The position numbers were made by a program, and so were the translations under genes. 64,000 bases of DNA from positions 86,898-150,897 of the forward strand of contig JAKPEO010000124.1 in NCBI GenBank assembly GCA_029551925.1, given 5' to 3'. How positions within the stretch are numbered: the stretch's first letter is position 1; every line of letters begins with the position of its first letter. Under the pieces are notes generated by a model that saw only the letters and a list, made by a program, of their open reading frames with translations, did not search any database and was not told where the DNA came from. This stretch comes from a bacterium (GTDB taxonomy: Bacteria; JAGOBX01). Shown piece by piece: positions 8,234-52,500 of the stretch.

Positions 8234-11788
<3,555 letters not shown>

Positions 11789-11852: not shown

Positions 11853-13230
11853 TTATTTTGTTTTTTTCAAAACATCAACTAATGATTTTGTGTTCTTTTT
11901 GAGAGCTTCTCCTTTTGATTTCAAATCCTCGCTTTTCTTTAAAATCTGAGCTGAAATATTTTTTAATTTATCTGTTGATGCTACTATACTATTTATCACG
12001 CTCGTTTGTTCTTTTACCGCTTCCGAAATTTCAACTATCGAATTATTAGTCTCTTCAATAGCGGAATTTATCACATTAAAAGACGAAGCGGCTTGTTCCA
12101 CTAATTCTACACCTTTATTGATAAGTGTTCTTCCGCTATTCATAGATTCTACTGATAATGATGTCTGCACTTTTATGGTATCAACTAACAAAGAAATTTC
12201 TTTTACTGATTTATGCGTCTGCTCAGATAATTTATTTACTTCATCTGCAACAATAGCAAAACCGCGTCCGGCCTCGCCAGCACGCGCTGATTCAATAGCG
12301 GCATTCAAAGCAAGCAGTGAAATTTTTCTACTTATACCCGTTATTATTTCTACTATATTGCTTATTTTTTGACTGTTTTCATTTAATGTGTCTAATTTAT
12401 TTGAAGTTGTTTTTATACTTTCTTTTATATTTTCCATTTCTAATGTTACCATATCCATTATCTTTAATCCGTTTTTTACAGCGTTTATCGTGTTATTTGA
12501 AATTTCGCGACTCTTTTCGCAATTATGGTCTATTTCCTGCACTGACGCTGAAAATTCTGTCAGCGCTGTATCTGTATCATGCGTTAATAATGACTGTTCA
12601 TTACTTTGTTTTATAAATTCATTTGATGAATTATTAACTGTCTCTGAAACTTCATCTATTGTCACAGCGACTTTTTTAACTTCGTTTATTATATTTTCTA
12701 AATCAGAAATTAAATTCCTTAAATTATTAGTCATTATTTTGAAATTATTGCCTAATTCGCCTTTTACTGTCTCGGATAATATCGGATGATGCAATTCGCC
12801 GCGCGCTATCGCATCCGCTTGCTCTGACAATTTCTTTAAACTAAAAATCATATCTTTAAACGCATTGCTCAATACTCCAGTTTTTTCTATTTTTAAATTT
12901 TTGTTGCTCAATTCTCCATCCGCTATTAATTTCGCTAAACCGGCAAACTGTCTTAAATTTTTTGTCATTTCGGCAAACGCTTTACTTAATGTCCCGCTAC
13001 CGCTTGTCGAAAGTTCGTTCGCATAAAGTTCGTCGTTCGCTATTAATTGCGCCTGCTTGGTTAAATTTCTTAGATTCACAATAACATCAGAAAACGCCTT
13101 GCCTAATGTGCCCGCACCATCGGTGCTAAGTCGTTCATTATATAAATCATCATTTGCTATAATTTGCGCTTGCTCCGCTAAATTTTTTAAATTAGCAGCC
13201 ATCTTATAAAACGCTTCGCCTAAATCGCCT
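11853..13230 (-). repeat. Dispersed direct repeat of about 1.2-1.4 kb. It is the 3' half of the MCP gene, and its partner lies at approximately 39153-40570.
   Basis: The two MCP C-terminal halves align at the DNA level at roughly 75-80% identity. One example is ...TTTGATTTCA..TCCTCGCT.TT.TT.A.AT.TG...GAAATATTTTTTAATTT.TC.GTTG..GCTACTAT.CT... in both genes. Confidence 0.6.
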
Positions 13231-14369
13231 TCGATTTTTATCTCTAAACTTTTATCTGTTAAATTATCATTTGATATGCATAACGCCTGCTGCATCAAAT
13301 TTCGCTGACTATCTAATATTCTATTAAACGCCGCTGTTAATACGCCTATTTCGTCTTTTGAACGAACCTCTAAATTCTCTATTTTTAAATCTCCTGCTGC
13401 TAATTTCTCGCCGATTTTCGTCATCTTTATTATAGGATTTGTAATCTTTTTACTGAAAATATACGCTAAAAATATTCCCGGTATAGTAAACGAAACAAAA
13501 TAAATCACAGCATTATTTTTGATATTATTTATAACCGCTTCTTTGATTTCTGCGAGATTTTTCTCGATCTTTTGAATTTCAAAAGTTTTTTGTGTATCAG
13601 CACTTTGTTCTAATTGCTTTCTCTCGTTGTCGATTTTTTCTAAAAAATCTACGCGCATCTTCTCTAATTGCTTATTTAATGTTTCAAGAGAATACGCGAT
13701 TATTACCACTCCCCAAAATTGACCGCTTATATTTATTGGCTGGACTAATCTATAAATCTCGATGCCAAATTTATCGTCTTTCATCTTTTCTCCGATTAAT
13801 TTTTTTTCGCTAAATACTTTGTTAATTAATAAATCCTGCACTTTTTTATTCTCTAAATCAGAAGTTTCAAAAAATTCGCCTTCTGTAAATTTTTTCTGCT
13901 TTTTAGAATAATTTCCAGAAATTTTATAAAACATCGCTTGCTTATTGCTGTCTATCAATATTGCATAAACTACACTTGCATCATTTTTGAACAATTCATT
14001 AAATGCAGTCGTAGCAAAACCAAAATCATAATTAGATATAGCATTCGCTAATTGCCCTGACAAATTAGATATTACTACCCGGCCTTTTTGAGTTATTGCC
14101 TCTGTTAAATTTGTCGTGAGCATCTCCATATTTTCAGAAAATTGTTTATTTAATAAGTCGGTCATTTGCTTGATGGCATAATCAAAATTATTTTGTATTA
14201 ACTTTTGACTATTATCTATAAATGATTTGCTTTGGGTATTTAATAATCCAATATTTCCGCGAAAATTTAAACCTATTAATAATGAAATTATTATTAAAAG
14301 CAAGATTAATATAAAGGCAGTAAGTTTAAATGATAATTTATGCCAAAAAAACTGTTTGTTTACATCCAT
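11853..14369 (-). CDS. Methyl-accepting chemotaxis protein with a tandem poly-HAMP array.
   Basis: 838-aa ORF with an N-terminal TM segment. The MCP signalling core is [34 protein letters not shown]. Several ~44-aa HAMP-like repeats are present (GxLGKAFxDMxxNLRNLxxQAxxIAxDDL). Confidence 0.9.
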
Positions 14370-14801: not shown

Positions 14802-15722
14802 TTAGTATTTCAATGTCAAACTAATTCTATGCGCATCACCGAGCGAACTATACCCAGTAAATGCATAATCAAACGAAAGATTATTAATTTTAAAACCAAT
14901 ACCGCAACTAATACCATTGCCAATATCAATTGCAGAATCATACCCAAATCTAATAAACATCGCGTTAACATAATTTAATTCTGCTCCGAGATTAACAGAT
15001 AAATCTTCTTTATCCGGACACACTAAATCCGCTGCTGGCGTTAATTTTACATCTTTACTCAATTCTAAATCTGTTGATAAGCCAAGTCTATATTCAATAG
15101 GCAGACTTTCTTTTTCACTTTCATATTTTAATTTAGTGCCTAAATTTTTGATAGTAAAACCAAATTTAGCTAATTTTTCGTAATCATAGATTATCCCTAA
15201 ATCTGTTGCAAATGCAGTTGCTTTACTATCATCTATTTTTGATGAAATGTATTTCAGTTTCGCGCCGAAATTAAAATTGTTATTTATTTTTTTACCGTAA
15301 GAAACGCCGACTTCTAAATCGCGCGCATCAAAAGCGCCAACATCAGTATAAGTAACGCCTGTTGCTATCAATGTTTTTCTGAAATCGCCGGCGTCAAACA
15401 TTGCTACATTTAAACCAAATACGCCATATAATGCTTTTATCGGTTGACTATATGCTAAATAATTATAATTCAAATCTTGAAAATAATTATTATGCATAAA
15501 AGTAAATTGTTTGTTTTCTACAAATCCCAAACCAGCAGCATTAGCATAGATACTGTTAATATCATTGGTTTGAGAAGTATATGCGCCAGCAAGTCCAGCA
15601 ATTACAGCGCTGGTCGGCATTCTTAAAAACAATGCGCTTTTTGTGCCATTGCCAGCAAAAACAACTGAACTAATCAAACATAAAATTATAATCAAACTTA
15701 TTATCTTTTTCATTTTTCTCAC
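14802..15722 (-). CDS. PorV/PorQ-family outer-membrane beta-barrel, T9SS-associated.
   Basis: 306-aa ORF with a signal peptide. N-terminal motif SAVIAGLAGAYTSQTNDINSIYANAAGLGF matches the PorV/PorQ/PorP consensus (gaRa.amgGA....aD..a...NPAGL). The C-terminus ends aromatic (SLTLKY). It lies 26 bp downstream of a T9SS cargo gene. Confidence 0.6.
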   Translation of the reverse strand: MRKMKKIISLIIILCLISSVVFAGNGTKSALFLRMPTSAVIAGLAGAYTSQTNDINSIYANAAGLGFVENKQFTFMHNNYFQDLNYNYLAYSQPIKALYGVFGLNVAMFDAGDFRKTLIATGVTYTDVGAFDARDLEVGVSYGKKINNNFNFGAKLKYISSKIDDSKATAFATDLGIIYDYEKLAKFGFTIKNLGTKLKYESEKESLPIEYRLGLSTDLELSKDVKLTPAADLVCPDKEDLSVNLGAELNYVNAMFIRFGYDSAIDIGNGISCGIGFKINNLSFDYAFTGYSSLGDAHRISLTLKY

Positions 15723-15748
15723 CTGCTTGTTATTTTTATAAAATTTTA

Positions 15749-18700
15749 TTATCGAATAATTGCTAATTTCTTAACTTTCTTTCCGAGCGGGCTCTCGATT
15801 ACTACAAGATATACGCCGCTTGCTACTTTCTCGCCTTTCTTATTATACGCATCCCAAATTACCATTCCTTGATTAGTCAACGGCTCGCATTCATCTACTA
15901 ACTGACCTAAAATATCATAAATTTTTATTTTTGCGTTTGCTGGTAATCCAATGATATGAATACCAGTCATATTACCGGCATTTAGCGCGCCAGAAAATTC
16001 AGCGCCTGTTGCAGGATTACCATCATTAGGTTTAAACGGATTTGGAAAGATAACTATATTATCCATTGTCGTCTGCACAGGTGCGCCTGCTGAAAAAACG
16101 CCGTAAATAGAAAAATGCGTTAGTCTTGCAATTATTTTATCAGACTGGCGACTAATTATTTGCGTATCTGCTAATGCTTGCCATTCATTCTGTGTTTCGT
16201 TAAACCAATAAACGCTAACATATTTATTTTGCAATTGCAGCGGCAAATTAAAAGTAATCGTACAACTTACATTATTGTTTATTGATTGGTTATTCTGTAT
16301 AAAATCAAATTTGCGCACGGTTTGCAAACCTGCTGAATAATCAGCGTCAGTGCCGAATTTCTTAACTGTTTGTTTGACCTGTTCGCTGGCTTCTATCTTT
16401 TGTTTTACCGTCGTATCTTCTGCTGTTTTGATAGAAACATTTATCGGCAAACTTGTATCGCTAAATGTTAAATTTAATTCTATTGTCGCGTTATTAGCAG
16501 TAGCAATATTTAAAACTGCGGTATTCGGCGCTTGATTATTGTTTGCCAGCACTGCATTCACTATAACAGCGGTAGTATCTTCTATTATCACAATCGGCGC
16601 AGCAGAATCAATTGTTGTATTGATTATCTTTATTGAAGTATCGTTATTATAATAAACTAGCAAATTAATATAAGTTTCGTTCCCGACAAAATCTGTTGCG
16701 ATGATTTTTAAAGTGTTAGTATTTGCTTGCAAATTTGAAACCGCGCAAGTAAATGTATCCGCCGGCAATCCTAATGTCACATAAAAAGTATCTTGATTAT
16801 TCAATACTATTTTTGCAGTATCATTAGCGGGTGTATGATTTAATTTACCAATAACGCTAATATTATCTGTGTCAATAACTATGCCGCTTGCCGGCGAAAT
16901 AATTTGTAAATTTGGTGCTGTAACATCAATATTAAATGTTATTTTAGCGCTATTTTTTGGCGGTTCGTTATTAACTGAACTTGCTGTAAATATAATAGTT
17001 TTTATACCGTCACTTGTAAATGTAATTTGTTGAGAAAATACTGTTGTGTCAGTATTAGAAAAAACTGTCGTTGTATTACCGCTTTCAGAATTATAAACCT
17101 GTAAAGTATTCAACGCTCCGATATTGCCAAAACTACCAGTAAAAATTACGGTCCGTGAATTTATTGTAGTATCAACAGTATAAGACAACGGATTAACGCT
17201 AAGCGGCGTAATATCTTGTCTTTTTAAAACTATAAATTGATTAATATTATTTACCTGCGTTACTGTCTCGCCAGCTAATAAATAATAAGTTGTATTGCCT
17301 AAAACATCAATTGCTTCTAAACCATAATAAACTAATCCTGAATCCAATGAATTAGCGCTACGCGCCGGAATTGTAAAAGTATCAGTTAAAGTTTTGCTGT
17401 TATTTGCTGTTTTTGAAATTTCTATCAAATTATCTAAAATCGCAGCGCTATCAATATCTACATAATATAAATTTACTTCTCCGATATTACTATAAACATC
17501 TGTCACACTAAACTGTAAATTAATCGCTTGCGTAGTATCAGCCCAAGTAACTGGCGTAAATGTAAAACTCGGGCCTGTCTGGTCTAATATAATTGTATCG
17601 TTGACAGTAGTATAATTTCCAGCAGAATCATATACTTTAATTGAGATTGTTTTTATCCCATCGCCAGCAGTTAATTCTATATTAAATTGATTTCCTGATG
17701 TTATTGCAATCTCGCCTTTATAAGCAGTTAATACATCACTGCTTGCTAATATTTCGATTGTATCTTTTCTATCAGTTGAATCACTGTAGCTAAATGTAAC
17801 TACTTGCTGCGTAAAATTTGTTATATCAGCTGAACCAATTTGTAAACTTATATTCGGCGCAGTGTTATCAAAAAATATCGTAGCACTACCTGCCGGTGAA
17901 GTGTTGCCTTCTATATCTACATATTCGCAATATATTGTTTTTATTCCATTTGTATTAGTCAATGATACTGCATAAGTCATAATGTTAGTATCTGTAATAT
18001 TCACTTGATTTTCTATATCGCCGTAAATTCTGCCAGTTGCTAAACCAATGCCTGTTATTGATAATTTATTTATCACAACTGTGCAGTTATTTGAATTAGT
18101 CAATGGCGCTTGAACTATCGAAATTTCTGGCGCTGAATAATCTATGCGCTGTAATTTTACAAACTGCGAAATTTGTGAAGGCGAAACAGTCGTCTCTCCT
18201 GATATTATATAATATTTTACATTATCTAAAGTATCCGATACCGCTAAATAATAATATACAAATCCAGAATCAGCAATAGTCGCATTACGCGCTGGTATAG
18301 TAAAAGTATCGGAATATTCTATCGATTGCCCGCTCGGCGTTAATGTTATTATTTGCACATTATTAAAATCTGCAGTTGAATCCATTTCTATATAATGTAA
18401 CGCTACGCCTTTAATATACCGCTGGTCTGATACAGTAAACTGCAAATTAATCGCTTGTGTAGTATCAGCCCAAGTAACTGGCGTAAAATTGAAAGTCGGT
18501 CCAGTTTGGTCTAATGTTATTGTCGCAGAGGTTTCAGATATATTGCCTGCTAAATCTTGAAATCGCGCTGTAATAGTTTTTACGCCGTCGCCGGTTGTTA
18601 AGATTATTTGCTGCGGTGAACTGTTAGTTATCTGCGCAGCATTAGTTAAATCGCCAGTTATAATAATCGTGTCTTGTAAATTTACATCAGAAACATTAAA

Positions 18701-19837
18701 TGTTAATTGAAGATAAGTAGTATTTGTCAAAGTATTATTCGCATTTAAAATAAACGAATTAATAACCGGCGCCGTTTTATCTAATGTTATTGCTATTGGA
18801 TTAGAGGTTGAATTACCGAACCAATCTTTTACTTGTAATAATAAATTTTTAGCGCCATCGCCAATAGATAAATTACATTGCGCGCTGGAAGCACTATATG
18901 TTTTCCACTCATCAGCATCGGTTACATCGCCAGTAATTTTATAATATAATGTATCCATTAAATAATTATTTCCAGAATTAGTAGCATTAAATGTTATTGT
19001 TATAGTTGTATCATTAGCGTATTGCGAATAATTTAAATTGCTTATGATCGGAGTTTCTACTTTAGAAAAATTATATTGCGGATTCGTTGTTACATTTTTA
19101 TTTGCTTCTTCTATGACATAATTCCCTAAACTATAATTCGGCTCGCCAGCGTCATACTGATTATTATCATTCAAATCAATAAAAGTTTTGAGACTATAAT
19201 TTGTGTAAAATAAATTATTAAATGAATAATTGAAATTATTACTAACATTTAATGCATTTAAATTTAAAGTAAACATTTGCGAATCTGTCGTTATTTCAGC
19301 GTTATTAGCCCAAGTAGTCAAATATAAATATATTTTTTTATTATTCAACGATTCTGCGTTAGTAGAATTTGTATTAAATGTAAATTGTCCGCTTATCGAA
19401 CCATCGCCTGGTAAAGGAAAATATACTATATTTGCATATGCACGATTATCATTATTATCACTAACGCTTAAATACAAATTATGTGGCGCACGATTAGTAT
19501 AATTTATGTTGGCATTATAACTCGTTAAATCTTGACTTGCATTTTCTTTATCTATTGATTGATTATAATGAAATGATGGACTGCCGTTGGCATAAATAGA
19601 TATATTAACAAAATCAATTAATGCATTTTGCGAAGGATCGCTTAATGTCCAAACAAATTGTCCAGTAGAATCATTTACAGAATATGCAATCGGCTTTGTA
19701 ATTATCAACGGCGTTGAAATGCCTTTGATAAATTTTGCGGTTGCTCTATAAATTGTATCATCATTATATTTTTTCACATTAAAATTATAACTCGTGCCGC
19801 TTACAGGAAAATCTGAAATAACAATATTAAGTATCAA
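15749..19837 (-). CDS. Large cell-surface protein with tandem Ig-like modules and a T9SS C-terminal sorting domain. It is probably the downstream part of a frameshifted gene that is continuous with 19827..20465.
   Basis: 1362-aa ORF. The C-terminal ~90 aa are a classic T9SS CTD (FPNPF...KIKIYDILGQLVDE...GEKVASGVYLVVIE...KKLAIIR). Internal ~310-aa repeats begin DQTGP(T/S)F(N/T)FTPVTWADTTQAINLQF. There is no ATG start and no signal peptide; the predicted start is TTG, which overlaps the upstream ORF by 11 bp. Confidence 0.75.
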   Translation of the reverse strand: MILNIVISDFPVSGTSYNFNVKKYNDDTIYRATAKFIKGISTPLIITKPIAYSVNDSTGQFVWTLSDPSQNALIDFVNISIYANGSPSFHYNQSIDKENASQDLTSYNANINYTNRAPHNLYLSVSDNNDNRAYANIVYFPLPGDGSISGQFTFNTNSTNAESLNNKKIYLYLTTWANNAEITTDSQMFTLNLNALNVSNNFNYSFNNLFYTNYSLKTFIDLNDNNQYDAGEPNYSLGNYVIEEANKNVTTNPQYNFSKVETPIISNLNYSQYANDTTITITFNATNSGNNYLMDTLYYKITGDVTDADEWKTYSASSAQCNLSIGDGAKNLLLQVKDWFGNSTSNPIAITLDKTAPVINSFILNANNTLTNTTYLQLTFNVSDVNLQDTIIITGDLTNAAQITNSSPQQIILTTGDGVKTITARFQDLAGNISETSATITLDQTGPTFNFTPVTWADTTQAINLQFTVSDQRYIKGVALHYIEMDSTADFNNVQIITLTPSGQSIEYSDTFTIPARNATIADSGFVYYYLAVSDTLDNVKYYIISGETTVSPSQISQFVKLQRIDYSAPEISIVQAPLTNSNNCTVVINKLSITGIGLATGRIYGDIENQVNITDTNIMTYAVSLTNTNGIKTIYCEYVDIEGNTSPAGSATIFFDNTAPNISLQIGSADITNFTQQVVTFSYSDSTDRKDTIEILASSDVLTAYKGEIAITSGNQFNIELTAGDGIKTISIKVYDSAGNYTTVNDTIILDQTGPSFTFTPVTWADTTQAINLQFSVTDVYSNIGEVNLYYVDIDSAAILDNLIEISKTANNSKTLTDTFTIPARSANSLDSGLVYYGLEAIDVLGNTTYYLLAGETVTQVNNINQFIVLKRQDITPLSVNPLSYTVDTTINSRTVIFTGSFGNIGALNTLQVYNSESGNTTTVFSNTDTTVFSQQITFTSDGIKTIIFTASSVNNEPPKNSAKITFNIDVTAPNLQIISPASGIVIDTDNISVIGKLNHTPANDTAKIVLNNQDTFYVTLGLPADTFTCAVSNLQANTNTLKIIATDFVGNETYINLLVYYNNDTSIKIINTTIDSAAPIVIIEDTTAVIVNAVLANNNQAPNTAVLNIATANNATIELNLTFSDTSLPINVSIKTAEDTTVKQKIEASEQVKQTVKKFGTDADYSAGLQTVRKFDFIQNNQSINNNVSCTITFNLPLQLQNKYVSVYWFNETQNEWQALADTQIISRQSDKIIARLTHFSIYGVFSAGAPVQTTMDNIVIFPNPFKPNDGNPATGAEFSGALNAGNMTGIHIIGLPANAKIKIYDILGQLVDECEPLTNQGMVIWDAYNKKGEKVASGVYLVVIESPLGKKVKKLAIIR
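17197..18604 (-). repeat. Intragenic tandem duplication: ~0.47-kb repeat segments spaced ~0.93 kb apart (approximately 18127-18604 and 17197-17671).
   Basis: DNA strings such as AATCGCTTG(C/T)GTAGTATCAGCCCAAGTAACTGGCGTAAA recur about 930 bp apart. The encoded modules are LDQTGPTFNFTPVTWADTTQAINLQFTVSD... and LDQTGPSFTFTPVTWADTTQAINLQFSVTD... Confidence 0.7.
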
Positions 19838-20465
19838 AAGAAGGATAATCTCCGTCCATTCTACCGATTAATGGAAGCCAATTTGAATTATAATTTACTT
19901 GCGCATATTCAATAACATTTGAATCACAATCAACGCCATTAATAATTATTTTACGTTCATCATTAAAATCAAGTTTGAAATATACCCGCAATGAATTATC
20001 CGGTCTTAATTCTGTAAATACCATAGCGCCAAACTGATTTTGATTGCCATACAAATACCAGGCATTATTTATTTTCTTCAAAATAAATGTTTCAGTCTCT
20101 ATCATCGTATCTGAACCGTCGCCTAAATGCAATTGAAATGTCGCTTCTACTATTGTTTCGCTTACTGACGCTACTGACAAAACAGGCAATAACATTTGCA
20201 TACCTTGTTGGATCGCTGGGATAATTTCATCGTTTAACTCATTAATAAGCAACTTGCTATCTTCACCATCATCTAAATAATCAGGAGCTAATAAAGTATA
20301 TAAACTTTGAGTATCGAGATTATTGCAAAATTGCGCAAATGAATCAAACATCGCTTGTATCTCTGCTTGTAATTGTTGATTAGCATACAGGTTCGCTCTA
20401 AAACCAAAAAACAAACTAATAAAAATAAATAACCCTATAATAATCTTTAATTTTCTCATAACCAC
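19827..20465 (-). CDS. Small secreted protein bearing a signal peptide. It is likely the N-terminal part of the T9SS cargo, split off by a frameshift.
   Basis: 212-aa ORF with signal peptide MVMRKLKIIIGLFIFISLFFGFRANLYA. It ends 11 bp inside the next ORF. Removing one T from the TTTT run around 19836-19839 joins the two ORFs in frame. Confidence 0.6.
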   Translation of the reverse strand: MVMRKLKIIIGLFIFISLFFGFRANLYANQQLQAEIQAMFDSFAQFCNNLDTQSLYTLLAPDYLDDGEDSKLLINELNDEIIPAIQQGMQMLLPVLSVASVSETIVEATFQLHLGDGSDTMIETETFILKKINNAWYLYGNQNQFGAMVFTELRPDNSLRVYFKLDFNDERKIIINGVDCDSNVIEYAQVNYNSNWLPLIGRMDGDYPSFDT

Positions 20466-20630
20466 TATCTCCTCCTAACTTTTTTTATTTGCATTTTTCA
20501 TTTTTTATTCGGAAATATTATATATGAAAATTTAAAAAAAACAATTTTTTTTTGTTCCAGTTTTTTATAATACATTAATTTTATAAAAAAATTCTATTTC
20601 ATCATATATCAAAAAATTTCGTATATAATA

Positions 20631-21276: not shown

Positions 21277-21594
21277 TTATATGCGTTCTAACAGTACAAT
21301 CATCGTGCCGCCACAGACATCGCCGTCAGCCAAACCAACAGGATCAGTTAAATTTACTTCAATTAATTCAGCATAATATTCATTTTTGGTAATTATAAAT
21401 TCTATTGCTTTTTTGATAATCGAACCTTCTACGCAGCCGCCGCCAATTGTGCCGAGCGTAGAGCCGTCAGCAAAAATAGTCATTCTTGCGCCCGCTTGCT
21501 GCGGGGTTGAACCGACATTTTTTATTACAGTAGCTAAACAATATGGTTTAGCGAATTTATTTGTATTTTCAATTAATTCTATTAAATTTTTCAT
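21277..21594 (-). CDS. Stand-alone XdhC/CoxI N-terminal-domain protein, a molybdoenzyme maturation accessory.
   Basis: 105-aa ORF. Sequence ATVIKNVGSTPQQAGARMTIFADGSTLGTIGGGCVEGSII matches the XdhC_CoxI signature (ATVv...GSaPr..GakM...G...GsiSGGC.E). Confidence 0.5.
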   Translation of the reverse strand: MKNLIELIENTNKFAKPYCLATVIKNVGSTPQQAGARMTIFADGSTLGTIGGGCVEGSIIKKAIEFIITKNEYYAELIEVNLTDPVGLADGDVCGGTMIVLLERI

Positions 21595-21598
21595 AATA

Positions 21599-22381
21599 TC
21601 ACAATTTAGACGATGATTTTAAAATTTCAAGTTTATTGTTTTTTACTGCTATTATTTCCGCTAATATCGCAAGCGCTATTTCTGAAACATCATTATTACT
21701 AATCGGCAATCCAATAGGCGAATATACTCTATTCAATTTTTCAGCGCTTATTCCCTGTGTCATTAATAACTGCTTTACTGCCAAAATACGCTTCTTACTA
21801 CCGATCATTCCTATATACGCCGCATCAGAATTTATTACTTGTTCCAATACTTCTTTATCATATGTATGTCCGCGCGTGACTATCACCAAATAATCAGTAT
21901 TCATAATTTTTATGTTTAATTTATTAAAATCACAATTAAGAGTTTTTACTTTTCCATTAAATCCATTTAATAAATCTGCGCGGTCATCAACAACAATAAC
22001 ATCAAAATCAAAAAAGTTTAATAATTCCGTAAGCCGGCGGCCGCAATGTCCAGCGCCAAAAATAATTACTCTTCTGCGCGGCTCAAAATACTCAATAAAA
22101 AATTCATAATCGAATTTATTATGAGAATATTTAATGATATTAGTATTAAACGAACTATTTTTATTCTGCGGACAAACAGCATTTTTTTCTGGTAATTTTA
22201 AAATAGTATCTATTGGGAATTCTTCTATTTCAGAAAGCAAAATTCTGCCGCTGTCATCAGTTAAAATTTTAGACGCTAATCGCACATTATTATCGTTATT
22301 CAAGCAAATAAATAATATATAAGTTCTGTCTGCTTTTATTATATTCAACAATTCGTCATAAAATTTTTTTGAAGATTTCAT
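21599..22381 (-). CDS. XdhC-family Rossmann-domain protein (XdhC_C / YqeB-like) with a degenerate N-terminal domain.
   Basis: 260-aa ORF. Contains RVIIFGAGHCGRRLTELLNFFDFDVIVVDDR...LVIVTRGHTYDKEVLEQ...AYIGMIGSKKR, which is the XdhC C-terminal NAD-like fold. Confidence 0.55.
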   Translation of the reverse strand: MKSSKKFYDELLNIIKADRTYILFICLNNDNNVRLASKILTDDSGRILLSEIEEFPIDTILKLPEKNAVCPQNKNSSFNTNIIKYSHNKFDYEFFIEYFEPRRRVIIFGAGHCGRRLTELLNFFDFDVIVVDDRADLLNGFNGKVKTLNCDFNKLNIKIMNTDYLVIVTRGHTYDKEVLEQVINSDAAYIGMIGSKKRILAVKQLLMTQGISAEKLNRVYSPIGLPISNNDVSEIALAILAEIIAVKNNKLEILKSSSKL

Positions 22382-39152: not shown

Positions 39153-41696
39153 TCATTTTGTTTTTAATATTTTTTGCAATGTATGCGAATTTTCTTTTAA
39201 CAATTCGCCTTTTGATTTCAGTTCCTCGCTCTTTATTGATATTTGTTTTGAAATATTTTTTAATTTGTCAGTTGTCGCTACTATGCTGTCAATAACATTT
39301 GTTTGTTCTTTAACTGCATCAGAAATTTCAATAACTGAATTGTTCGTATCTTCTATCGCTTGATGAATTTTAGAAAATGAATCTGACGCTTTTTCTACTA
39401 ATTGCACGCCATTAGCAATTAATGTGCGGCCATTATTCATTGAATCAACTGACATTGAAGTTTGAGTCTTTATCGTATCAACTAACAGCGAAATTTCTTT
39501 AACTGATTTATTCGTCTGTTCAGCTAATTTATTAACTTCATCTGCAACTACCGCAAATCCGCGACCTGATTCGCCTGCGCGCGCTGCTTCTATTGCAGCA
39601 TTCAGCGCTAGCAACGAGGTTTTTTCGCTTATTCCTGTAATTATATCTACGATATTACTAATTTTTCTGCTGCTTTCATTTAATTCGTCTAATTTATGCG
39701 ATGTTGATTTTATACTTTCGTTTATATTTTCCATTTCGCGCGTAACTTGATTGATTATATTCAAGCCGTATTTAACAGCGTCAATTGTGTTGTGGCTGAT
39801 TTCTCTGCTTTTTTCACAGTTATGAGAAATTTCTTGAACTGACGACGAAAATTCTGTTAATGCCGTATCAGTATCATGCGTAAGCATTTCTTGTTCTTTA
39901 CTCTGTTTAATAAATTCATTGGAAGTTTCATTTATCGCTATTGTTACATTATCAATAATTCCAGCGACATTTTTTACTTCGTTTATTATATTTTCCAAGT
40001 CTGCGATAAGCTTTTTTAAATTATCAGTCATAATTTTAAAGTTATCGCCTAATTCTCCTTTTACTGTTTCTAATAAAATAGGATGATTTAATTCGCCGCG
40101 CGCTATTGCTCCTGCTTGCGCTGAAAGTTTTTTCAAACTGCTAATCATTTCAGAAAATGCATCGCTCAATACTCCGCGCGAATCTACTCGTAATTTATCG
40201 CTGCTTAATTTACCTTCTGCTATTAATTTCGCAAGTTCTGCAAAATTGCGTAATTTTATTGTCATCTGCGCAAACGCTTTGCCGAGCGTGCCTTCGCCAG
40301 ATGTTGATAATTTTTCATTATATAAATCGTCTGTGGCTATTAAATTCGCTTGTTCAGTTAAGTTCCGTAATTTTTTAATAACATCTGAAAACGCTTTGCC
40401 GAGTGTGCCCTCACCAGATATTGACAATTGCTCGTTATATAAATCGTCATTCGCTATTATTCGCGATTGCTTTGCTAAATTCCGTAATTTTTCTGTCATT
40501 TTAGTGAATGCCGCACCTAAATCGCCTTCTATTTTATTATCAAGCGCAATATTAGTCAAATCATCGTTTGATATAATTATCGCTTGCTCTACTAATTTTT
40601 TCTGACTTTCTACTAAATTATTAAAAGCTGCGCGAAGTTTGCCGATTTCATCCATATAATTCACTTCTATTTTTTTTATCTGCAAATTGCCTTTTGCTAA
40701 TTCTTCGCCGATTTCCGCCATTTTGATTATCGGTTTTGTAAAACGCGTAGAGATAAATAACGAGAGCAGCGCTACTATAACGCCAATAATTAATAAAAAT
40801 AAATAATTCATTAATTTCATTTTGTTTATATCAGCGAACGCTATTGATTCGTCTATCGCTACAATAGCATACCAATTGAGATTCGGCAATTCCTGTTCGC
40901 CTATTTTATAATTGCGTAATTTTGTGAATACCAACATTTTTCCACCGCTTGTTAAATAACCGCGATCGCTGTTTTTTAAATTTTCAAGTATTTTAGCATC
41001 TGTATTTTCCACTTTAAACATCGAATCTTTTAATAAAAATTCCGGCGCTGAAATTAATTTGTTTGAAGAATTAAATAATTCTAAATATGCGTTTTCAGTT
41101 TGACCTTTTTCAGCGTCTGCTATTAAACTAATTTTATTATTCGGCGTAAATAATAATTCATTGCAATCAATTGCTCCGACAATAAATCCGATGGTCTTAT
41201 TAGCGGATATTATAGGCACATACATTGTAATAGTTGGTGCGTTAAAAAGCGCGCTTATATAAATATCCTGCAATACAAAACCGCTTTTTTGGGCATTAGC
41301 ATAGCCCGGCTCATTGCTAATCATCTGCATTAATAATTTATTATTAGAAGACGCTACTATTCTATCCTTATTGTTCACAACAACAATATCTAAAAATATT
41401 TTGTAGTTGTTTTTGAATTTTTCAAGCATCTTGCTTATATTTCCTTCTATATCATCTGCCATTACTTCTTCCATTACAGATAAAGATGACCAGGTCTTTA
41501 AATTCTGCATATTTATAAATAATGTTTGCTGAATATTGTCTAAAAAAGCATTTTGAATATCATAATAATTCTTTAATATATCGCGCTGTTTAGAAGTTTG
41601 AAATGAATTAATACTTAAAAATGTCATTATTAATAGCGGCAGTAATGACGCTAATATAAAATATAAAATCATGCGCTTTTTTATTGAAATTATCAT
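39153..41696 (-). CDS. Methyl-accepting chemotaxis protein, a paralog of 11853..14369. It has a larger periplasmic sensor domain and a poly-HAMP array.
   Basis: 847-aa ORF. TM1, a periplasmic domain of about 280 aa that may be Cache-like, then TM2. The C-terminal ~470 aa are roughly 80% identical to the other MCP ([34 protein letters not shown]). Confidence 0.9.
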
Positions 41697-43519: not shown

Positions 43520-46500
43520 TTAATTTAAATTTTTCTTTAATTCATTTAAACGCTGCGCAGCTTTGCTCGCATAATCTGATGTCGGGTCTAATTTGATTGA
43601 TAATAAATAAAGTTCGTATGCTTTTTGATGATTATTAGAATCATAATACAAATCCGCTAACTTATTAATTATTTTTAAATCATTATTTTTTAATGTATAA
43701 ATTCGTTCGTAAATTTTTACAGTCTCTTTGATATTACCGCCGGTTTCATAAATTTCCGCTAATAATATCATATAATCAATATTAGTTGGCTCTAAATTTA
43801 CAGCTTTTTGAACATTCAATAACGCTCTGTCATATTTTTTTAATTTATATGATAATAAGCCATATTGCTGATAATATGTTGAATTTTTAATATTAAATTT
43901 TTCAGATTTCTCAAATAATTTGTCAGCTTCATCAAATTTTCCAACTTTCATTGCCGCAAGCGCTGAATTATAATATATCCGAAAATCTTCGAGATTTTGA
44001 TACTTTTGATTGTATGCTGAAAGTATCTCATAACTTTTTCTAAATAAGCCCTTTGTATAATAAATATTCGCTAATTTCAATATTCTATCATTTAATTTTT
44101 TTTGAATGTCAGATTTAGAAGTATCTAATGTTTTTAAATCTTGAAGTTTAGTATAATATCTCGCAGCATTATCAAATCTATTGATTTCATAATTTAAATC
44201 ACCGGCTGTCATCAAAATTTCCCATTGATTATTATTGATATTTAATGAATTTTCAAATTTTTGCAGAGCATCGGTCTTTTTGCCATTATTTAAATCAATA
44301 TATCCCAATAAATTCAAAATTTCAGTATCGTTTTTATTTGTAGCGTAAATTCTATTTAAAAATTCAGCGGCTTTATTATAATCATTTTTATAATAAAGTA
44401 TTTTGCCTGCTATTTTATTGAAATTTTCAATATCCGGCGCGGCAGTCAAGCCCGCGTCAAAATATTTTTTTAAATCAGCATAAGCATTATCAAAATTATT
44501 AAGGTAATAATAAGAGACAACCGTGTATTTATAATTATTCGCTGGCAATTTCGTTTTTACGCTCATAGAATTAAATAATTGCAGCGCTTCAGAATATTTT
44601 TTTAAGTGAAACGCTGAAATCGCAAAATTAAAATAATTTTCATTGTCTAATGAACTCTGCTTCTTGATTTGAGAATAATATAAATATGATTTTGCATAAT
44701 CAGTTATTGAAAAATAAAATTTCGCGATTTGCTGAACAATTTTATCAAAATAATTAGCATCTTCGATTTTATATGTCCCGTCATTATGAATCTTAATCAT
44801 TTCTTCATAATAGCCAATTAATCGCGCATCTATTTTGGAATTTAATTCATTATATAAATCAGCGGCTAATCGTAAAACTTGAAATTTTAAATTCGCTGAT
44901 ATGCCTTTTTGCAATAAATCATCGAATATTTTCAGCGCTTCGATTTTTTTCCGAATTTTGTAGAGCGAATATCCGTATTCATACATCTGCTCAGCGCGCA
45001 AATTGTTCAATTTTCCTGAATATTCCGCGCATTTTTCAAAATTTCCTAATTCAAAATTAGATTTCGCTAATTTTGATAATATCGTCTCTTTGTTTTGGTC
45101 AAGATTAAATAATACAGATAAATATCTATCTGCTAATTCATAATTTTTTAAATCAAAATAAGCATCGCCTAAATATTTGAGACATTCGGAATTTTTAGGA
45201 TTGTAATTCAAAGCAAATTTATAGTATTCTATGGCTTTTATGTTGTTGTTGCTCTTTCGATATAACCGCGCTAATATTAAAGCGTTTTCTTCTGACGGCG
45301 CTTTTGAATACAAATATAAATAATTTCTTTCTGCTGACGCAGTATCATTTTTGCTAATCGCAATGTCTCCTAAAATTTGATACACGCGCGGATCGTCAGA
45401 AATACCAGCAGCTTCATTAAGAAAATTTTGCGATTTTTCAAAATTCTTAATTTCGTAATATTTCAGCCCCAGCAATGTATAAGGCACAATTACATTAGCG
45501 CCGCTTTTCTTGGCTAAACTAAAATATTCTTCCGCTTTATTAAGATTGTTGTTATTTAAAAAATATTCGCCGATTATTAAATAAGCATCGCGTTTCGATT
45601 TTTCTTCTACTAACTCGATTTTATCTATTATCTGCTGAATATATTGCTCGATATTTTTGCTGTCGCCTAACTCTAAAAGTATCTTCACAAATTTTAATCT
45701 TATATCAATAATATTTTTTTCTGATAATCTGTTATTCAGTGCTTTTTCATTAGTATGATATTTAAAAAACTTTTCGTAATACTCGCCAGCTTTTTTTAAA
45801 TCGTTTTTGCTAAAATAAATTTCTGCTAAATAATACGCATAATCTGCAAAATTTTTAATATCCGCTGTTTTTCTTTCAAATTCTAAAAAATATTCAGCAG
45901 CATTAGTCAATTCTTTTGACAGCCAATATGTATAACCTACTATAAAATTTAATTCTGTTAATTGCTTTTTATAAATTTCTGGTAAAGTATCCACTAATCT
46001 TTTTATTTCAACATAATTCTGATTTTCAAAATAATATTTTAGCGCATATTCCAAATCTTCTAATTTTATCTTATTATCGGATTTATATTTTTTTAAAATA
46101 TATTCTACCGCAGCGGATTTATTATCCAATTTTATTAAACATTCAATTATATTATCAAAATATTCTTTGTTTTTAGTCAAATCAAGCCGAGAATAATAAT
46201 TATACGCTTTTTCGTAATTTTTACTTGCGAATAGTAAATTAGCGGTTTTTAAATATATTTCAGCGTCATTATTATTTATCGCTTGCAAATACTTTTCAAA
46301 ATAATGCGCGGCTAATAACGGATCTTTATTTTCTAATAAAAGTCCTAATCTTTTATTTACATCATTTCGAGTATTATCCAATAGCGAACATAAATAATAA
46401 TAAACAACAGCGCTGTCTATTTTTTTCAAATTATCAAATGATTTAGCCAATAAATAATAAATTTCAAAATTTGTTTTATTAAACTGCAAATATTTTTTCG

Positions 46501-49500
46501 CTGATAATATCGCACTGTCAAATAAATCTACATCAAAATAATATTCAGCTGATTTTAATGACAATTGCTGAATGTATTCAAGCGCATATTCTTCGTTTTT
46601 CATTATTTCAAACGCTTCTTTGAAATAATAGCCCGCTTGCTTTTTGTCAATAGTTGCTAACGCCAATCTAAAATACGCTAATCCCAATGTTTTTTTATCG
46701 TCAGCTGGCAAAATCTCAAAATTAAGCATTTTATAAGTGTCTATTGTTTTTTTATAATCTTCAATTTTAAATAATAATCGCGCAAGAGTCAGAATCGCTT
46801 GATTATCGCTTTTATTTGACATTATATATTTCTCATAATTCGCCGCGGCATTTTTGAAATCATTAAGCCGAAGATACAAATCTCCGAGCCGCTGATATGC
46901 TTTTATTTTGTTTTTGTCTAATGATATTAGTTGATTATATAATTTTATCGCGTCATTAACATACGATAATTGAAAATATAAATCTGCGCATTTTTCTAAA
47001 ACTTCAATATTTTTTGGGTTTGTTGACAAATAAATTGAATATTGATTTGCAGCGTTTACTAAATCGTTATTTTTTAAAAATAATTCCGCTAATTTATAAT
47101 TCAAATCATTGTTTTTAACTAAATTTCGCGCTAATACATACAATTCAATACTTTTATTAGTATCTAAATATTTTTCGCTTAACTGCGCAATCTGCAATAT
47201 AAAATTATTGTCGTTTGATTTCAGCGCAGCATTCGCTAAATATTCCGCGGCTTCTTTCTCTTGACCTGTATAATAATAAGCCCAGCCTAACTGCCGACTG
47301 TATTCAAAAGAATCCATTATTTCTTCGCGCTTTAATTTTGTGTAAATATCAATTACATTTTTATAATCTTTCAAAGAATAATAAGCGCTCGCTATTTTCA
47401 AAATTATATTTGTGTCGTTTTCCGAATATTGCAATGCTCCGCGATAGTTTTCTATCGCCTTAATATTTTCATTTGCAATGCTGTATAAATCTCCTAACTT
47501 TTCATAAATATTTCTTTTTAATTTTCGTATTTCTTCGGTGTTGCGCGCTTCTGATTCTATTCGTGTAAGCGCTTGCCATGCGTCTTGAAATTTACCGGAT
47601 TCGTATGACGCCACAGCTAAATAATAATACGCATCTTTTGATAAATACGGCTTTATACGAGATTCTGCTAATATTTTATAACCTTCAAAATAATTGGATT
47701 TCTTCACTTCCGCTATGCCTGTCAATACTCTTATTCGCATTTCAATATCGCGGTCATATACTTCAAACTTCAAATTTTTAGACGAATTTATTACTTCGTC
47801 GAATCTGCCGAGTTCTAATGCAGCTTCTAAAAATTTATATGTGTAATATTTTTTAGAATTATCTATGCTCAATAGTTTTTTCAATATTTCATATTCGTTT
47901 TGTTTGTTGCCGATTATTCTGCTGATTTCATATTTTATTAATAAATTTTCAAAATTGTCCGCGATATTAACTGATAATTTCGCGGCATCGGCAATCAGCC
48001 CATTTTTAAAATATAAATTGAATACCGCATTTATATAATTGCTATCTACTACTAACCCTTGCTTTTCAAAATTTTTTAATGCTTCGGCATATTCGCCTTT
48101 ATTATACAAACTCTGAAATTCGATTTTCTTTAATTCGGCGTCTTTTGCTTCTAATAAATTCAAATATTTTAGCGCTGTGTCGTATTTGCCGTCGCTATAC
48201 GCTTTTTTAGCAAGTATCGTATATGTGTGATTTATAATATTTACAATCTCCGGCTCGCTGCCGCTCGCTTTGATATTCATCTCCGCTAATTTTTCATATT
48301 CTCCTAATCTATACAGACACTTCGCTTTTAATAAAATAAATTTGTCTTTTTGGTCATTTTTGAGTTTTTGAGAATCTAATAATTTTAAACTTTTCGCATA
48401 ATTTCCTGTGTTAAAATACGCTGATACTAATCTTTCATAATCTGCGATTTCAAAATTATTATTTATAAATCTGTCCGCGTATTCTATATAAATATTGTCA
48501 TTTGAATTATTTAACGCTTTCAATATTTTTAGCGCGGCTTCTTCAATAACCGCGCGAGATATTTTCTTTGTCGTTTCAGTTTTTAATAATTCATTAGTCA
48601 ATTTTCCGATTAAATTAATTTTTTCAGTTTCGTCTATCGATAAATTATTCAAGCATTCTACATACATTAATAATACATCTTCGTCAAATATTGTTTTTTT
48701 CAAGGTCTCATAACATTTCTGATAATAACTTGTTTTTAAATATGCTGTCGCAATAATTTTTAATAAATTATTCGCTAAATTTTTATTTGTTAATTTTTCA
48801 AATACTTCTATTATTCGCTGATACTCGTTTCTTTCCGAAAGCAATATAATCAACTTATCAGCATAATCTAAATTATTCGTAAATTTATAATGCCAAAATA
48901 AAAAATTATACGATTTCTCACGAGTTGCTGTATTATAATAATAATTTCCTAATATCTGACTTACATTTGTTAAGATATTTTTATAATTTTCAATTTTTGC
49001 GATTTCTGTTTTGTCAGTAGAATAAACATTAAATACTCTTTCATAATAGTCGATTTTTTGAATAATATTATTTTGCAAATCTGCCGCGTTATAAAAAGCG
49101 ATAAATATTTTTTTATTTAATTCTTTTAATAAATTCAATTTTCCTAATTTTTCTAATTTATTGAATTGCTCGATAAAATTAATATAATCGGAATTATCAA
49201 AATAAATTTCGCCGAGCTGCGCTATAACTTCAATATCATTAGAATTTTTCTTTAAATGTCTTTGAAAATTTATCAGCGCCTGATTTATATTTTTAGATTT
49301 TATAAATAATCTGCCAATTTTTTTATATTTATCATTTAAAACATCATCAGGCAATTGTTCGAGCCGCGCTATCGCATTTTCATAGTTCCCTAAATTTTCT
49401 TCTAACTCGGCAATCTTCAATATCGCAGTTTGATTTTTATTGATATTTGCGTATTTCTTCAAAAAATCAAGAGCTTTTGATAGATTGCCGTTTTGCAAGT

Positions 49501-52500
49501 AAATCTCATACAAAGCATATAAAGCGTTTTCATTTTCTTCTATTTCTAATAACCTCAAATATAATTTTTCGAGATTTTGAGTATCTCGCGTCTGCTGCGC
49601 TAATTTTATCGAGCGTTTTAAAATATCAGCGTTTTTCGTTATTTCGCATAATTTCAAATAATAAGAATACGCTTTTTTATAATCTTCGATATTATACAAA
49701 GATTCCGCAAATTTCGTAATTTCGCTTTCGCTATTAAATTCTTGTTCGTCAGCTTTAGAATAATATTCTACCGCGTTTGAATAGCGTTTGAGATAATAAT
49801 AGCAATCGCCGATTTTTTTATTTAATGATGATTTTTGTTCTAATGTCGATAATCTCAAATAATTTTCTAACGCCTGATTATAACGCTGCGCTTTAAAAGA
49901 TTCGTCCCCAATCGTTGAATAAATGTCTATTAACGCATTTTTTACGCGGCTGTCGTTTGCGTCTAATTTCGCCAGCATTTCAAGCGACGCTGTATAATCC
50001 TTTAAATAATAAGCGGCAAACGCTCTGTAAAATTTTACATCGTATTTTATCGTATCTTTGATTAATTTCAAATGTCTTAACGCGTCATCGAATCTCTTCA
50101 ATTCAAAATAAGATACCGCCAATATATAATTTATCTTGTCTAATTCATCTGACCGTTTAAATGAATTTTGCTTTACCGCGTTCATCAATATATTAATTGT
50201 TTGACTGAATTTTTTTGCGTTAAAATTGTATTCTGTAAGTTCAATAATATAATTATTTTCTAATGTTTTATTTTGTAAATACGATTTTTCTAATATCTCG
50301 AAATATTTATTTTCTAAACCTAATGCCCGAGCTATTTGCAAATAGCTTTTTAATGTGTCTTTATGCAAAAATTCGTTCTTTGAAAAATAGTCGGATAATA
50401 TTTGGTTGTGATTTTTGATAATATCATCTTTCGCTAAAATATCCAAATATCTTTTTTGATTATCTGCTGATTTTTTGTGGTAATCTAATAATTCTAAAAC
50501 ATATTGTATTTGACTATTGTCTAATTCAAAAATTTTCTCTATTAGCGAATAATATTCCGGTTTGCGCAGTTCTTTGCAAATATCTGCGAATTTCTTTAAT
50601 TTTTCGATATTTCGAGTCTTTAATAAATTCAATTGAATTTTGGAATAGTAGTTATATGCTTCTACTATTTTGCCGTTTTCTAAATACAAATCAGCTAATT
50701 TTTCAATAATTTCCAAATCTTCGGTTTTATTAAGCGTTAAATATCTTTCATAATATTGCAGCGCTAAATTAATCTGCGCTAAATGCAAATTTACTTCCGC
50801 TAACTTTTTGTATATTTCAGCGGTTTCTGCGAACATCTTGGCTTTGTTGAGATATTCAAGCGCTTTACCGTAATTTTTAGTTTTAAAAAAATAATCAGAA
50901 GCGTAAAAAATCAAATCTCGGCCGTTTAATTTTCCGCTTTCTAATTTTTCTAAATAGCCGTTTAATTTCTCAAATTTTTCAGAACGCAGTAATGACAATA
51001 AAAAGAAATCTGATATTTCCTTATAATCCGGATAATACATCATTACTTTTTCATATAATTCATTTGCTTCATCGTATTTCTGTTGATAAAACAAAATCAT
51101 CGCTAATTCATATTTATAACTATAATTTTCAGGATTCAATTCTATTAGTTTTTTGTATATTTCTGCCGCTTGATTATTGTCATATAAATTTAATAATTTT
51201 TTTGCGTATATTTCAGTTAATTGTTTTGCTACTATTTTTTTATCTGATAATCTGCTGAAATAATATTCGGTCTTTTCTAAATTTTTCAACCTTGCAAAGC
51301 AGTCGCCCGCAAAATATAAACTGTCTTGCAAGCGATAATTTTCATTTGCGCATATTTCAAAAAATTTAGCGGATTTTTCATATTCTTCTAATTTATAATA
51401 TATCTCTGCAATTTTATATGCGGTATTAATTATCTGTTTTAGCGGGCTTTCTGAAATTTTACGATTATAAAATTTTAGATAATGCTCTAATGCCTGCGTT
51501 AAATTATTATTCCGTTCGTATATCCGCGCAAGTTGAAAATTAGCGGATATTTCATCAGAAAAATAGTCCTGATATTTTTTCGCAATCTTTATTCTATCAG
51601 TGTCTGACGCTAAATAATCTAATAGCGAAAATAAAATTTTTATAGAGTCTGAATCGCTGTCAGTTAAATTTTCTAATGTTTTAATAATATTGCCGAGGCG
51701 GTAATAAGCGGTCCCTAAAAGTTTTCTGCTGTTTTGATAATCTCTGATTTTATTAAATTCTGCTATTGCATTATTATAATCAGAATTATTAAAATAACAT
51801 AATGCCTTATGATAAATTACATCTGTATCTTCTTGCAATTTTAAAAAATATTCGAGCGCTTCCGCATATTTGCCGTTATCAAATAAAAATCGCGCTTTGA
51901 TTAATGAATATTTATTTGTTAATTCTTGATATTTTTTAGAATTAGTTTTTTGTAAATTCTCGTTAGATAATAATTTCTCAGCCATTTCAAATTTCGATAT
52001 GTCAATACAAGCATCGGCGAAATTTAATAAAAATTCAGTATCTGCTATTTTGTCATTATATATTTTCAAATAATATTTATACGCTATTTGCGGCAGCCCG
52101 CGCTGATAATATAAATCAGCGGCATATTTAAAAAGTTTGTCAGAACTATAACCGCTTTCCAAGCCCTGCGCAAAATATTGCAGCGCCTTTTCCTGCTGAC
52201 CTTTATTCAGGTATATCTCGCCTAAATATAAATAGCCCTGCATATAATCTTTGTCATTAGCCAATACTGCGCTAATATTTTTTTCCGCTTTGTCATACAG
52301 CCCTTGCGCCATATAAATATCAATCAATTTCATTTTTATTGATTTATCTGTTGGAAAGGATTTTTCTAATATTTCAAGATATATTAAAGCGTTTTTGTCA
52401 TCGCTGATTGACAAATAATAATCAGCTAATTTTTTCGCAATATTATTGTCTTTGAATTTCGAATATAATATTTTTTGATAGTTTGCCGCTATATCGGATT

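Follow-up and report, generated by a model that had tools for sequence, protein, structure and literature searches.

T9SS cargo proteins, as described in PMC12618676, carry a Sec signal peptide at the N-terminus and, at the C-terminus, a sorting domain (CTD) of about 100 amino acids, and the same paper describes type B CTD substrates of Flavobacterium johnsoniae that are often genetically linked to the genes for their cognate PorP/SprF-like shuttles. The locus analysed here resembles the type A cargo proteins of Bacteroidota (e.g., PG93, PDB 5m11) in that the repaired gene has both a signal peptide and a CTD, and its cargo body of Ig/FN3-like modules is like that of many T9SS adhesins. It differs from type A cargo in that the gene is broken, its HMM scores are marginal, its CTD, with ~30 amino acids inserted behind FPNPF, gets a slightly higher score as FlgD_ig, and its host lies outside the phyla in which a T9SS has been demonstrated. 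In gene order it also resembles the F. johnsoniae cargo-shuttle pairs, since a large adhesin-like gene is followed on the same strand by a barrel gene of the PorV/PorQ/PorP superfamily; unlike the type B pairs, however, the CTD is type-A-like and the barrel scores 42 bits against a PorP/SprF cutoff of 90.55. The barrel passes the NCBIfam PorV/PorQ family model, to which F. johnsoniae PorV (6h3i chain F) and P. gingivalis PorQ are the known parallels, but it fails the equivalog cutoffs and is 303–306 aa long, compared to 402 aa for PorV in 6h3i.

The window, by which we mean the whole 64-kb stretch of DNA that was analysed, comes from an uncultured anaerobic-digester bacterium, and the features of concern are as follows (window positions):

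14802..15722, minus strand: outer-membrane beta-barrel gene of the PorV/PorQ family, on the same strand as the cargo gene and 26 nt downstream of it.
15749..19837, minus strand: 3′ fragment left by the break, 1362 aa when read from TTG 19837, with Ig/FN3-like beta-sandwich modules and then the sorting domain.
15752..16063, minus strand: C-terminal sorting domain (T9SS type A/FlgD-Ig-like), from DNIVIFPNPF to KKLAIIR.
17499..18523, minus strand: internal duplication, a ~309-aa module of the cargo protein with the repeated peptide ...LDQTGP.F.FTPVTWADTTQAINLQF...
19090..19339, minus strand: block of 250 nt that is 100% identical to homolog L002, to which identity elsewhere is 57–95% per 60-nt window.
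19827..19828, minus strand: frameshift lesion, one extra A that changes the ancestral ACT TAT ATT to ACT TAA TAT T, from DNA alignments to L002.
19827..20459, minus strand: 5′ fragment left by the break, which starts at ATG 20459 and encodes 210 aa, colinear with homologs P0001 and P0125 up to ...FDT.
20382..20459, minus strand: Sec-type signal peptide MRKLKIIIGLFIFISLFFGFRANLYA, assigned by inspection and not by a predictor, with h-region hydropathy of 2.8.
20449, minus strand: polymorphic site, TTA (Leu4) in the window and a TAA stop in five other public contigs.

No named DnaE protein is more than 63% identical to that of the host, which is ~45% identical to those of many phyla, and by this sequence measure the host is a deep-branching uncultured lineage whose phylum has no demonstrated T9SS. 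The standard genetic code applies, because the window uses all three stop codons. The two ORFs had been described in an initial annotation, and their coordinates, lengths and 11-nt overlap were reproduced: the 5′ ORF (19827..20465, minus strand) encodes 212 aa from a GTG or 210 aa from the ATG, and the 3′ ORF begins with the TTG. That annotation had also stated that the large-ORF frame stays open upstream to 19870, where we find the stop that closes it (19868–19870), and that this ORF has no ATG, which is correct for its first 187 codons but not beyond them, the first in-frame ATG being at 19276. A promoter and terminator scan of this 30% GC DNA gave 55 promoter-like sites where 39 were expected, and terminators at chance level.

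The proposal that the two ORFs are halves of one protein is borne out by three homologs, with 73% (P0001/L002), 41% (P0125/L020) and 40% (P0123/L019) amino acid identity, each of which is a single ORF across the junction. P0125 has its own N-terminal signal peptide and continues through the junction, and P0123 has a frame that is open to its contig start and is colinear over 984 aa. Since the homologs are unsplit and one of them has a signal peptide, these sequence comparisons indicate that the ancestral gene is a single protein of ~1569 aa that runs from signal peptide to CTD; the repaired coding sequence holds no further stop. The dN/dS value against L002 is 0.27 on both sides of the junction, a figure that mostly reflects the history before the break, and both halves have therefore been coding for most of their history. 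The family is rare, with about five relatives found among billions of proteins. When the full repaired 1569-aa sequence served as query, the one match was the 1362-aa ORF of the organism itself, a scan of genome contigs of species representatives found only three loci with a short DLNDNNQYD-type motif, and two scans of metagenome contigs (with a protein pattern and with a 50-nt conserved DNA pattern) gave no match.

Where exactly does the reading frame break? In the alignment to L002 the sole non-triplet gap is a single A at window position 19828, and this extra A (at 19827/19828) makes the TAA stop itself and shifts the frame by +1, while the three homologs are continuous. The site reads ACTTAATATT, and the nearest run, a T4, is in frame; the Phe-Asp-Thr after that run is still homologous in frame, its Asp-Thr is invariant in four sequences, and the homologs carry Tyr or Ser after it. 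The initial annotation had placed the lesion in the T4 run (19836–19839) and noted that a one-base deletion fuses the ORFs. The fusion itself stands, as deleting any one base within 19830–19867 gives ~1569 aa with no stop, but the assignment to the T4 run does not. Repair by deletion of a T from that run was also considered and rejected, for it would swap the invariant Asp-Thr for Leu-Ile-Leu. A likely-looking homopolymer need not be the site of a frameshift, and here the alignment to an intact homolog shifted the lesion by ~8–12 nt onto the stop codon. An AF2 model of P0001 (pLDDT 70.7 overall and 71–85 around the junction, built on a 5-sequence alignment) has the junction (142|143) between strands 137–141 and 143–146 of a beta-sandwich at about residues 78–175, and the junction is thus predicted by this model to lie inside a domain and not in a linker.

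As sequenced, the signal peptide and the CTD are on separate ORFs in different frames and are joined only after repair. In the 5′ fragment the signal peptide is followed by an N-terminal alpha/beta domain and the opening strands of a beta-sandwich, and the fragment ends at the insertion-made TAA. Its N-terminus (MRKLK-IIIGLFIFISLFFGF-RANLYA) is laid out like a Sec signal peptide, and together with a mean h-region Kyte-Doolittle value of 2.8 this agrees with the earlier assignment of such a peptide to the small ORF. No Pfam or NCBIfam family matched the N-terminal ORF or homolog P0125; our impression is that the N-terminal part may be NTF2-like. The 3′ fragment has no signal peptide of its own, and for P0001, as far as it is modelled, Foldseek returns tandem Ig/FN3 proteins. 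The 98-nt cores of its internal duplication (17499–17596 and 18426–18523) are 86% identical and 927 nt apart. Its CTD had been called textbook; a CTD is indeed present, since it scores 23.2 bits against the TIGR04183 cutoff of 23 and matches the P. gingivalis PG93 CTD (5m11, residues 686–752) with E = 6.6e-9, but the HMM score is borderline and textbook is too strong a word, the domain also being below the Pfam cutoff of 27 (PF13860 25.2, PF18962 17.7). No other CTD-bearing ORF was found in the 64-kb window.

The neighbouring gene was correctly described as a PorV/PorQ-type barrel. Its product scores 190.8 bits against NF033709 (cutoff 90), covers positions 2–325 of the 326 in that model, begins with a signal peptide and ends in Tyr; in the PDB it matches F. 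johnsoniae PorV alone (6h3i_F, E = 1.2e-5). It is under the equivalog cutoffs (NF033710, NF033711), with 134.6 vs 220 for PorQ, 83.1 vs 250 for PorV and 69.2 vs 325 for PorV2. The T9SS core proteins PorK/L/M/N, Sov/SprA and PorU were not found among ORFs of 150 aa or more in the window or in ~10 kb past its right end, a search of ~74 kb only that is silent on the whole genome.

The same junction is present in six other public contigs that are 99.86–100% identical to the window with no gaps: L001 (NCBI GCA_035406285.1), L007 and L010 (JGI 3300019235 and 3300019243), L008 and L009 (ENA ERZ795060 and ERZ27257400) and L021 (JGI 3300010338). These come from several sample accessions and different pipelines (SPAdes-style NODE, MEGAHIT-style k141 and JGI), although some may share sequencing runs and L001 and L008 are near-duplicates, and the comparison is of consensus assemblies only. 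At that consensus level the gene is OFF in 7/7 sequences that cover the junction. The population also carries a second lesion, in which Leu4 of the signal peptide is changed to a stop in all five of the other contigs that reach codon 4; this nonsense change and two nonsynonymous SNPs are the within-population changes seen in the gene (n = 3 events only). An exact look-up of the 210-aa product gave no match because in other assemblies codon 4 is a stop and the gene call starts at Met38, and a look-up of the corresponding 174-aa form did match. The 1362-codon 3′ frame is fully open, which at a population divergence of ~0.1% is uninformative.

We conclude that a real and recent pseudogenisation of a T9SS-type adhesin-like cargo gene is the probable explanation, and it is also the one that the evidence favours among the three options of the initial annotation. 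In the ancestral gene a Sec signal peptide would have led into a small alpha/beta domain and then a long series of Ig/FN3-like modules, with a T9SS type-A-like CTD at the end and the barrel gene next in line. Insertion of an A at 19827/19828 turned a Tyr codon into TAA and put the 1359 codons that remain into the +1 frame. The 210-aa product would still be exported but would be cut off in the middle of a beta-sandwich domain, while the 1362-aa remainder, whose only start is a TTG behind a poorly spaced GGAG and which lacks a signal peptide, would, if translated, be unable to reach the periplasm, the site at which the sorting domain is recognised. It is this pairing of a truncated exported part with a remainder that could not be exported that marks the gene as a recent pseudogene. 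The codon-4 stop would have been gained later, by most of the sampled genomes of the population. Residual function of the 3′ part is possible, as are its independent translation from TTG 19837, given the GGAG 11 nt upstream, and the presence of a minority intact allele in the population.

A functional fission, in which a small secreted N-terminal protein and a large protein from TTG 19837 are both expressed and useful, is unlikely. In its favour, the large ORF runs through 1362 codons without a stop, a GGAG stands 11 nt upstream of the TTG, and gene calls at NCBI and JGI include both ORFs. Yet the homologs are unsplit, the model puts the break within a beta-sandwich domain and not at a linker, the small ORF is knocked out at codon 4 in five contigs, and the large product has no signal peptide, although according to PMC12618676 a sorting domain is meaningful only after Sec export.

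Could the frameshifted copy instead be one of several co-occurring variants (alleles or paralogs) of a variable surface-protein locus that trade segments by recombination, and be silent or in decay? The window and L002 form a mosaic in which the 100% identical block (19090–19339) interrupts much more variable sequence, contigs of several short-read assemblies end at 19055–19069, just beyond that block, as expected at a fork in an assembly graph, and the sample accession of L002 is near that of a sample with the window's sequence. Ordinary homologous recombination between strains could give such a mosaic, however, and no second copy is present in the 64-kb window, nor was any recombinase or cassette architecture seen nearby; we regard this explanation as quite unlikely.

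The initial annotation had left two further options open, and both are very unlikely. Single-base indels are the commonest assembly error and the locus lies between two break points of short-read assemblies, so that an extra base absent from the organism had to be considered, but the same junction appears in the window and in six JGI, ENA and NCBI contigs made by different pipelines from several sample accessions, and the site is AA/TT with no homopolymer run. Slipped-strand phase variation, by which a contingency locus would switch the surface protein ON and OFF, would act on a typical target class, and a T4 run is close by and a 1-nt change restores the frame. The lesion is outside that run, though, and no hypermutable simple-sequence tract is present at the site. 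Tracts of T4 and AA are far below the lengths that slip appreciably. No ON allele is found in the assemblies, and the second lesion, found in 5/5 contigs, is a nonsense SNP of a non-reversible type.

Programmed +1 ribosomal frameshifting at ACU-UAA that restores the full-length protein is extremely unlikely: the need for a +1 change exactly at a stop codon and the upstream GGAG recall prfB, as the surface-protein target recalls contingency loci, but there is no slippery codon, properly spaced SD, repeat tract or conservation, a shift from ACU to CUU allows no tRNA re-pairing, the GGAG is 22 nt from the stop and not ~3 nt, the 87 nt after the stop fold less well than shuffled sequence (z = +1.3), there is no Rfam match, the shift is absent from 3/3 homologs, and the codon-4 stop in most contigs would make it pointless.

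If the gene is, as we think probable, a recent pseudogene, the two deposited "hypothetical proteins" are halves of one inactivated ~1569-aa gene and should be labelled as a pseudogene. A type-A-like CTD beside a PorV/PorQ-family barrel, in a bacterium with no close named relatives, is a data point on T9SS-like modules beyond the Bacteroidota, and we offer it as an observation and not as a result. A wider reading, which we find unlikely, is that this rare family represents a variable locus, subject to recombination and to recurrent inactivation, in a chemotactic and deep-branching lineage outside the Bacteroidota that uses a T9SS-like CTD/PorV pathway. The distant homolog L020 has an independent in-frame TAG at a conserved Trp, and on that variable-locus reading this TAG, the frameshift, the codon-4 stop and the 250-nt identical block would reflect repeated selection. 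If true, neutral decay would not be the cause: the exposed protein would repeatedly have been lost or swapped under selection, for example by phages or grazers.

The broken cargo gene and its downstream neighbour are laid out in the window as follows:

19827–20465, minus strand: 5′ ORF, 212 aa from a GTG or 210 aa from the ATG at 20459
15749–19837, minus strand: 3′ ORF, 1362 aa from a TTG, overlapping the 5′ ORF by 11 nt
15752–16063, minus strand: C-terminal domain of the 3′ ORF, ~104 aa
14802–15722: PorV/PorQ-family gene, 26 nt downstream of the 3′ ORF (NF033709, 190.8 bits against a cutoff of 90)

The 5′ ORF begins with MRKLK-IIIGLFIFISLFFGF-RANLYA, which is laid out like a Sec signal peptide (h-region hydropathy 2.8), and its ATG at 20459 is preceded by AGGAGG; the ORF has no match in Pfam or NCBIfam. 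A stop at 19868–19870 bounds the frame of the 3′ ORF on its upstream side, and the earliest in-frame ATG of this ORF, at 19276, lies 187 codons in. Its C-terminal domain scores 23.2 bits with TIGR04183 (T9SS type A sorting domain; cutoff 23), falls under the Pfam cutoff of 27 with Por_Secre_tail (17.7) and FlgD_ig (25.2), and matches C-terminal residues 686–752 of P. gingivalis PG93 (PDB 5m11) with E = 6.6e-9. The neighbouring gene is under the PorV and PorQ equivalog cutoffs, and F. johnsoniae PorV (6h3i_F) is the one PDB entry whose sequence it matches. The anatomy described in the initial annotation is thus real: the two overlapping ORFs, the signal peptide, the sorting domain and, by its NF033709 score, the PorV/PorQ neighbour are all present. 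According to PMC12618676, the PorV shuttle handles type A domains, and genes for type B cargo are often linked to PorP/SprF-like shuttle genes. We infer that the barrel encoded here is plausibly the shuttle or anchor of the adjoining cargo protein.

Where exactly is the frame lost? The initial annotation placed the shift in a T4 run (19836–19839), which the alignments do not support: the codons past the run, TTT GAT ACT (Phe-Asp-Thr), are still in frame with the homologs, and all four aligned sequences share Asp-Thr without change. The DNA is GATACTTAATATTGTT in the window and GATACAT-ATATTACT in the intact homolog, and the full alignment to this homolog contains one non-triplet gap, a single A at window position 19828, all other gaps being multiples of three. 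The most parsimonious reading of the alignment is that ACT TAT ATT (Thr-Tyr-Ile) became ACT TAA TAT T, in which case the inserted A would itself make the stop codon.

A junction-spanning query retrieved protein P0001 of the intact variant (JGI 3300010347; 73% identity), which is continuous through the junction (...GRQDGSRAVFDTYITIQNFPITNTEYNF...), and an exhaustive HMMER search with P0001 found two more homologs. P0123 (NCBI GCA_035360475.1; 984 aa, 40% identity) is colinear with the 3′ ORF, with no stop in its frame back to the contig start, and P0125 (Logan assembly; 270 aa, 41% identity) starts with a signal peptide of its own and runs on over the junction. As none of the three is split, the ancestral gene was one ORF that began with the signal peptide and ended with the sorting domain; once repaired, the window CDS has 1569 codons and no internal stops, so the fused protein first proposed for this locus is borne out. 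In the contig of the 41%-identical homolog (Logan SRR4236669_291143, positions 2403–2405) an in-frame TAG replaces a conserved Trp (HFA*TLG versus QFVWTLS) and the frame is open beyond it; the TAG reflects either a nonsense mutation that arose independently or an error in the contig.

Recent pseudogenisation, one of three options in the initial annotation, is the best supported of them, by the unsplit homologs, by a second lesion and by dN/dS, and we consider it quite probably the best explanation of the split. The second lesion is a T to A change at window position 20449, seen in each of the five contigs extending to codon 4, which turns TTA (Leu4) into TAA inside the signal peptide, so that gene callers begin the 5′ ORF at Met38. 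Because the frameshift is present in all sequences and the codon-4 nonsense mutation in most, the frameshift came earlier and the second knockout later. The remaining two within-population SNPs in the gene are both nonsynonymous (P253L, and K1305E in the sorting domain). Relative to the intact homolog, dN/dS is 0.27 on either side of the junction, so both halves were long under purifying selection as coding sequence and the break is recent. In an AF2 model of P0001 (pLDDT 70.7; 71–85 near the site), whose Foldseek matches are tandem Ig/FN3 proteins, the junction (142/143) falls between two strands of a beta-sandwich of approximately residues 78–175, and the break is thus predicted to truncate a fold rather than part two domains. 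Before the break, the gene would have encoded an adhesin-like surface protein exported by Sec and sorted through its CTD. At present the signal peptide and the sorting domain are on separate polypeptides, the 5′ product stopping within a partial domain and the 3′ product, if translated from the TTG, being unable to reach the periplasm, and the net outcome would be loss of function.

The window and the intact variant contig (L002) form a mosaic. Per 60-nt window their identity is 57–70% in several N-terminal stretches and 75–95% elsewhere, and a 250-nt block at 19090–19339 is 100% identical, which points to recombination between variants that occur together, or to a paralog. Contigs from several assemblies end at 19055–19069, just past this block, as expected of an assembly fork between co-occurring variants. 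Together with the TAG of the 41%-identical homolog, these observations would allow for a surface-protein locus that recombines and is repeatedly inactivated; recombination of the ordinary kind between strains, with one possible contig error, accounts for them too.

Sequencing or assembly error, another of the options first offered, is very unlikely to have caused the split. Exact-product look-ups retrieved consensus sequences of six further public contigs over the junction:

L001: NCBI GCA_035406285.1
L007 and L010: JGI 3300019235 and 3300019243
L008 and L009: ENA ERZ795060 and ERZ27257400
L021: JGI 3300010338

All six have the same junction string as the window (99.86–100% identity, no gaps), the site is not a homopolymer, and the contigs were built with different assemblers and trace to several sample accessions, though reads may be common to some of them (L001 nearly duplicates L008). 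Directly upstream of the signal-peptide ORF lies an A/T homopolymer-rich stretch (…ACAAAAAAAAATTGTTTTTTTTTAAATTTT…, 20483–20540) within which all short-read contigs found on either side start or stop, so the 64-kb window derives from a different or scaffolded assembly. The cargo gene also contains a duplicated ~309-aa module (cores at 17499–17596 and 18426–18523, 86% nt identity, 927 nt spacing), which likely contributes to assembly breaks.

Slipped-strand phase variation of a surface protein, the remaining option, is unsupported: the lesion lies in no repeat tract, and none of the seven consensus sequences is an ON allele. Programmed +1 frameshifting at the stop codon is opposed by ACU-UAA, which permits no re-pairing, by a sole GGAG 22 nt from the stop, by downstream RNA that folds worse than shuffled sequence (z = +1.3), by the lack of an Rfam match and by the absence of the shift in all homologs. 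Stop codon usage in the window is 25 TAA, 9 TGA and 4 TAG, and since all three are used the genetic code is standard.

The window (~30% GC) encodes MCPs, PFOR, Bat-like proteins, a GspK-like pseudopilin, DnaE and a TPR protein; no T9SS core gene was found among its ORFs and ~10 kb past its right end (~74 kb in all). The TPR protein is a single 3709-aa ORF (43520–54649, minus strand), largely TPR repeats, with PrsT-like and MamA-like matches, and tRNA-Leu(TAA) (62498–62584, plus) adjoins the GspK-like type II secretion minor pseudopilin gene (62701–63624, minus). The organism is probably chemotactic, because there are two MCP genes (11853–14369 and 39153–41696). An XdhC-type maturation factor (21277–22381, minus) consists of two adjacent ORFs in permuted order:

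21599–22381, minus strand: C-terminal Rossmann part, first; 260 aa, NF045664 positions 108–345
21277–21594, minus strand: N-terminal XdhC_CoxI part, second, after a 4-nt gap; 105 aa, positions 13–100

This layout recurs in at least seven public contigs and is therefore not an error. In the PFOR gene (8234–11776, minus) the window differs from another JGI contig (L003) by nine transitions clustered in 134 nt (9654–9787), seven of them nonsynonymous, the rest of 13.6 kb being near-identical. At 9670–9673 the window encodes VCLYAV versus VCPHAV (the expected ferredoxin-type sequence) in L003, and at 9767–9787 L003 encodes PNSSFPTRTS and the window's 10 residues differ; the clustered changes resemble strand-asymmetric C-to-T and G-to-A substitutions.

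The source samples of the contigs are presumably anaerobic-digester metagenomes. DnaE of the window is 100% identical to that of a JGI 3300010338 contig; its identity to named sequences is no higher than 63%, and to many phyla it is ~45%, distances from which the host is a deep-branching uncultured bacterium. Unusual as the organism is, the inactivation of its cargo gene is nothing out of the ordinary.
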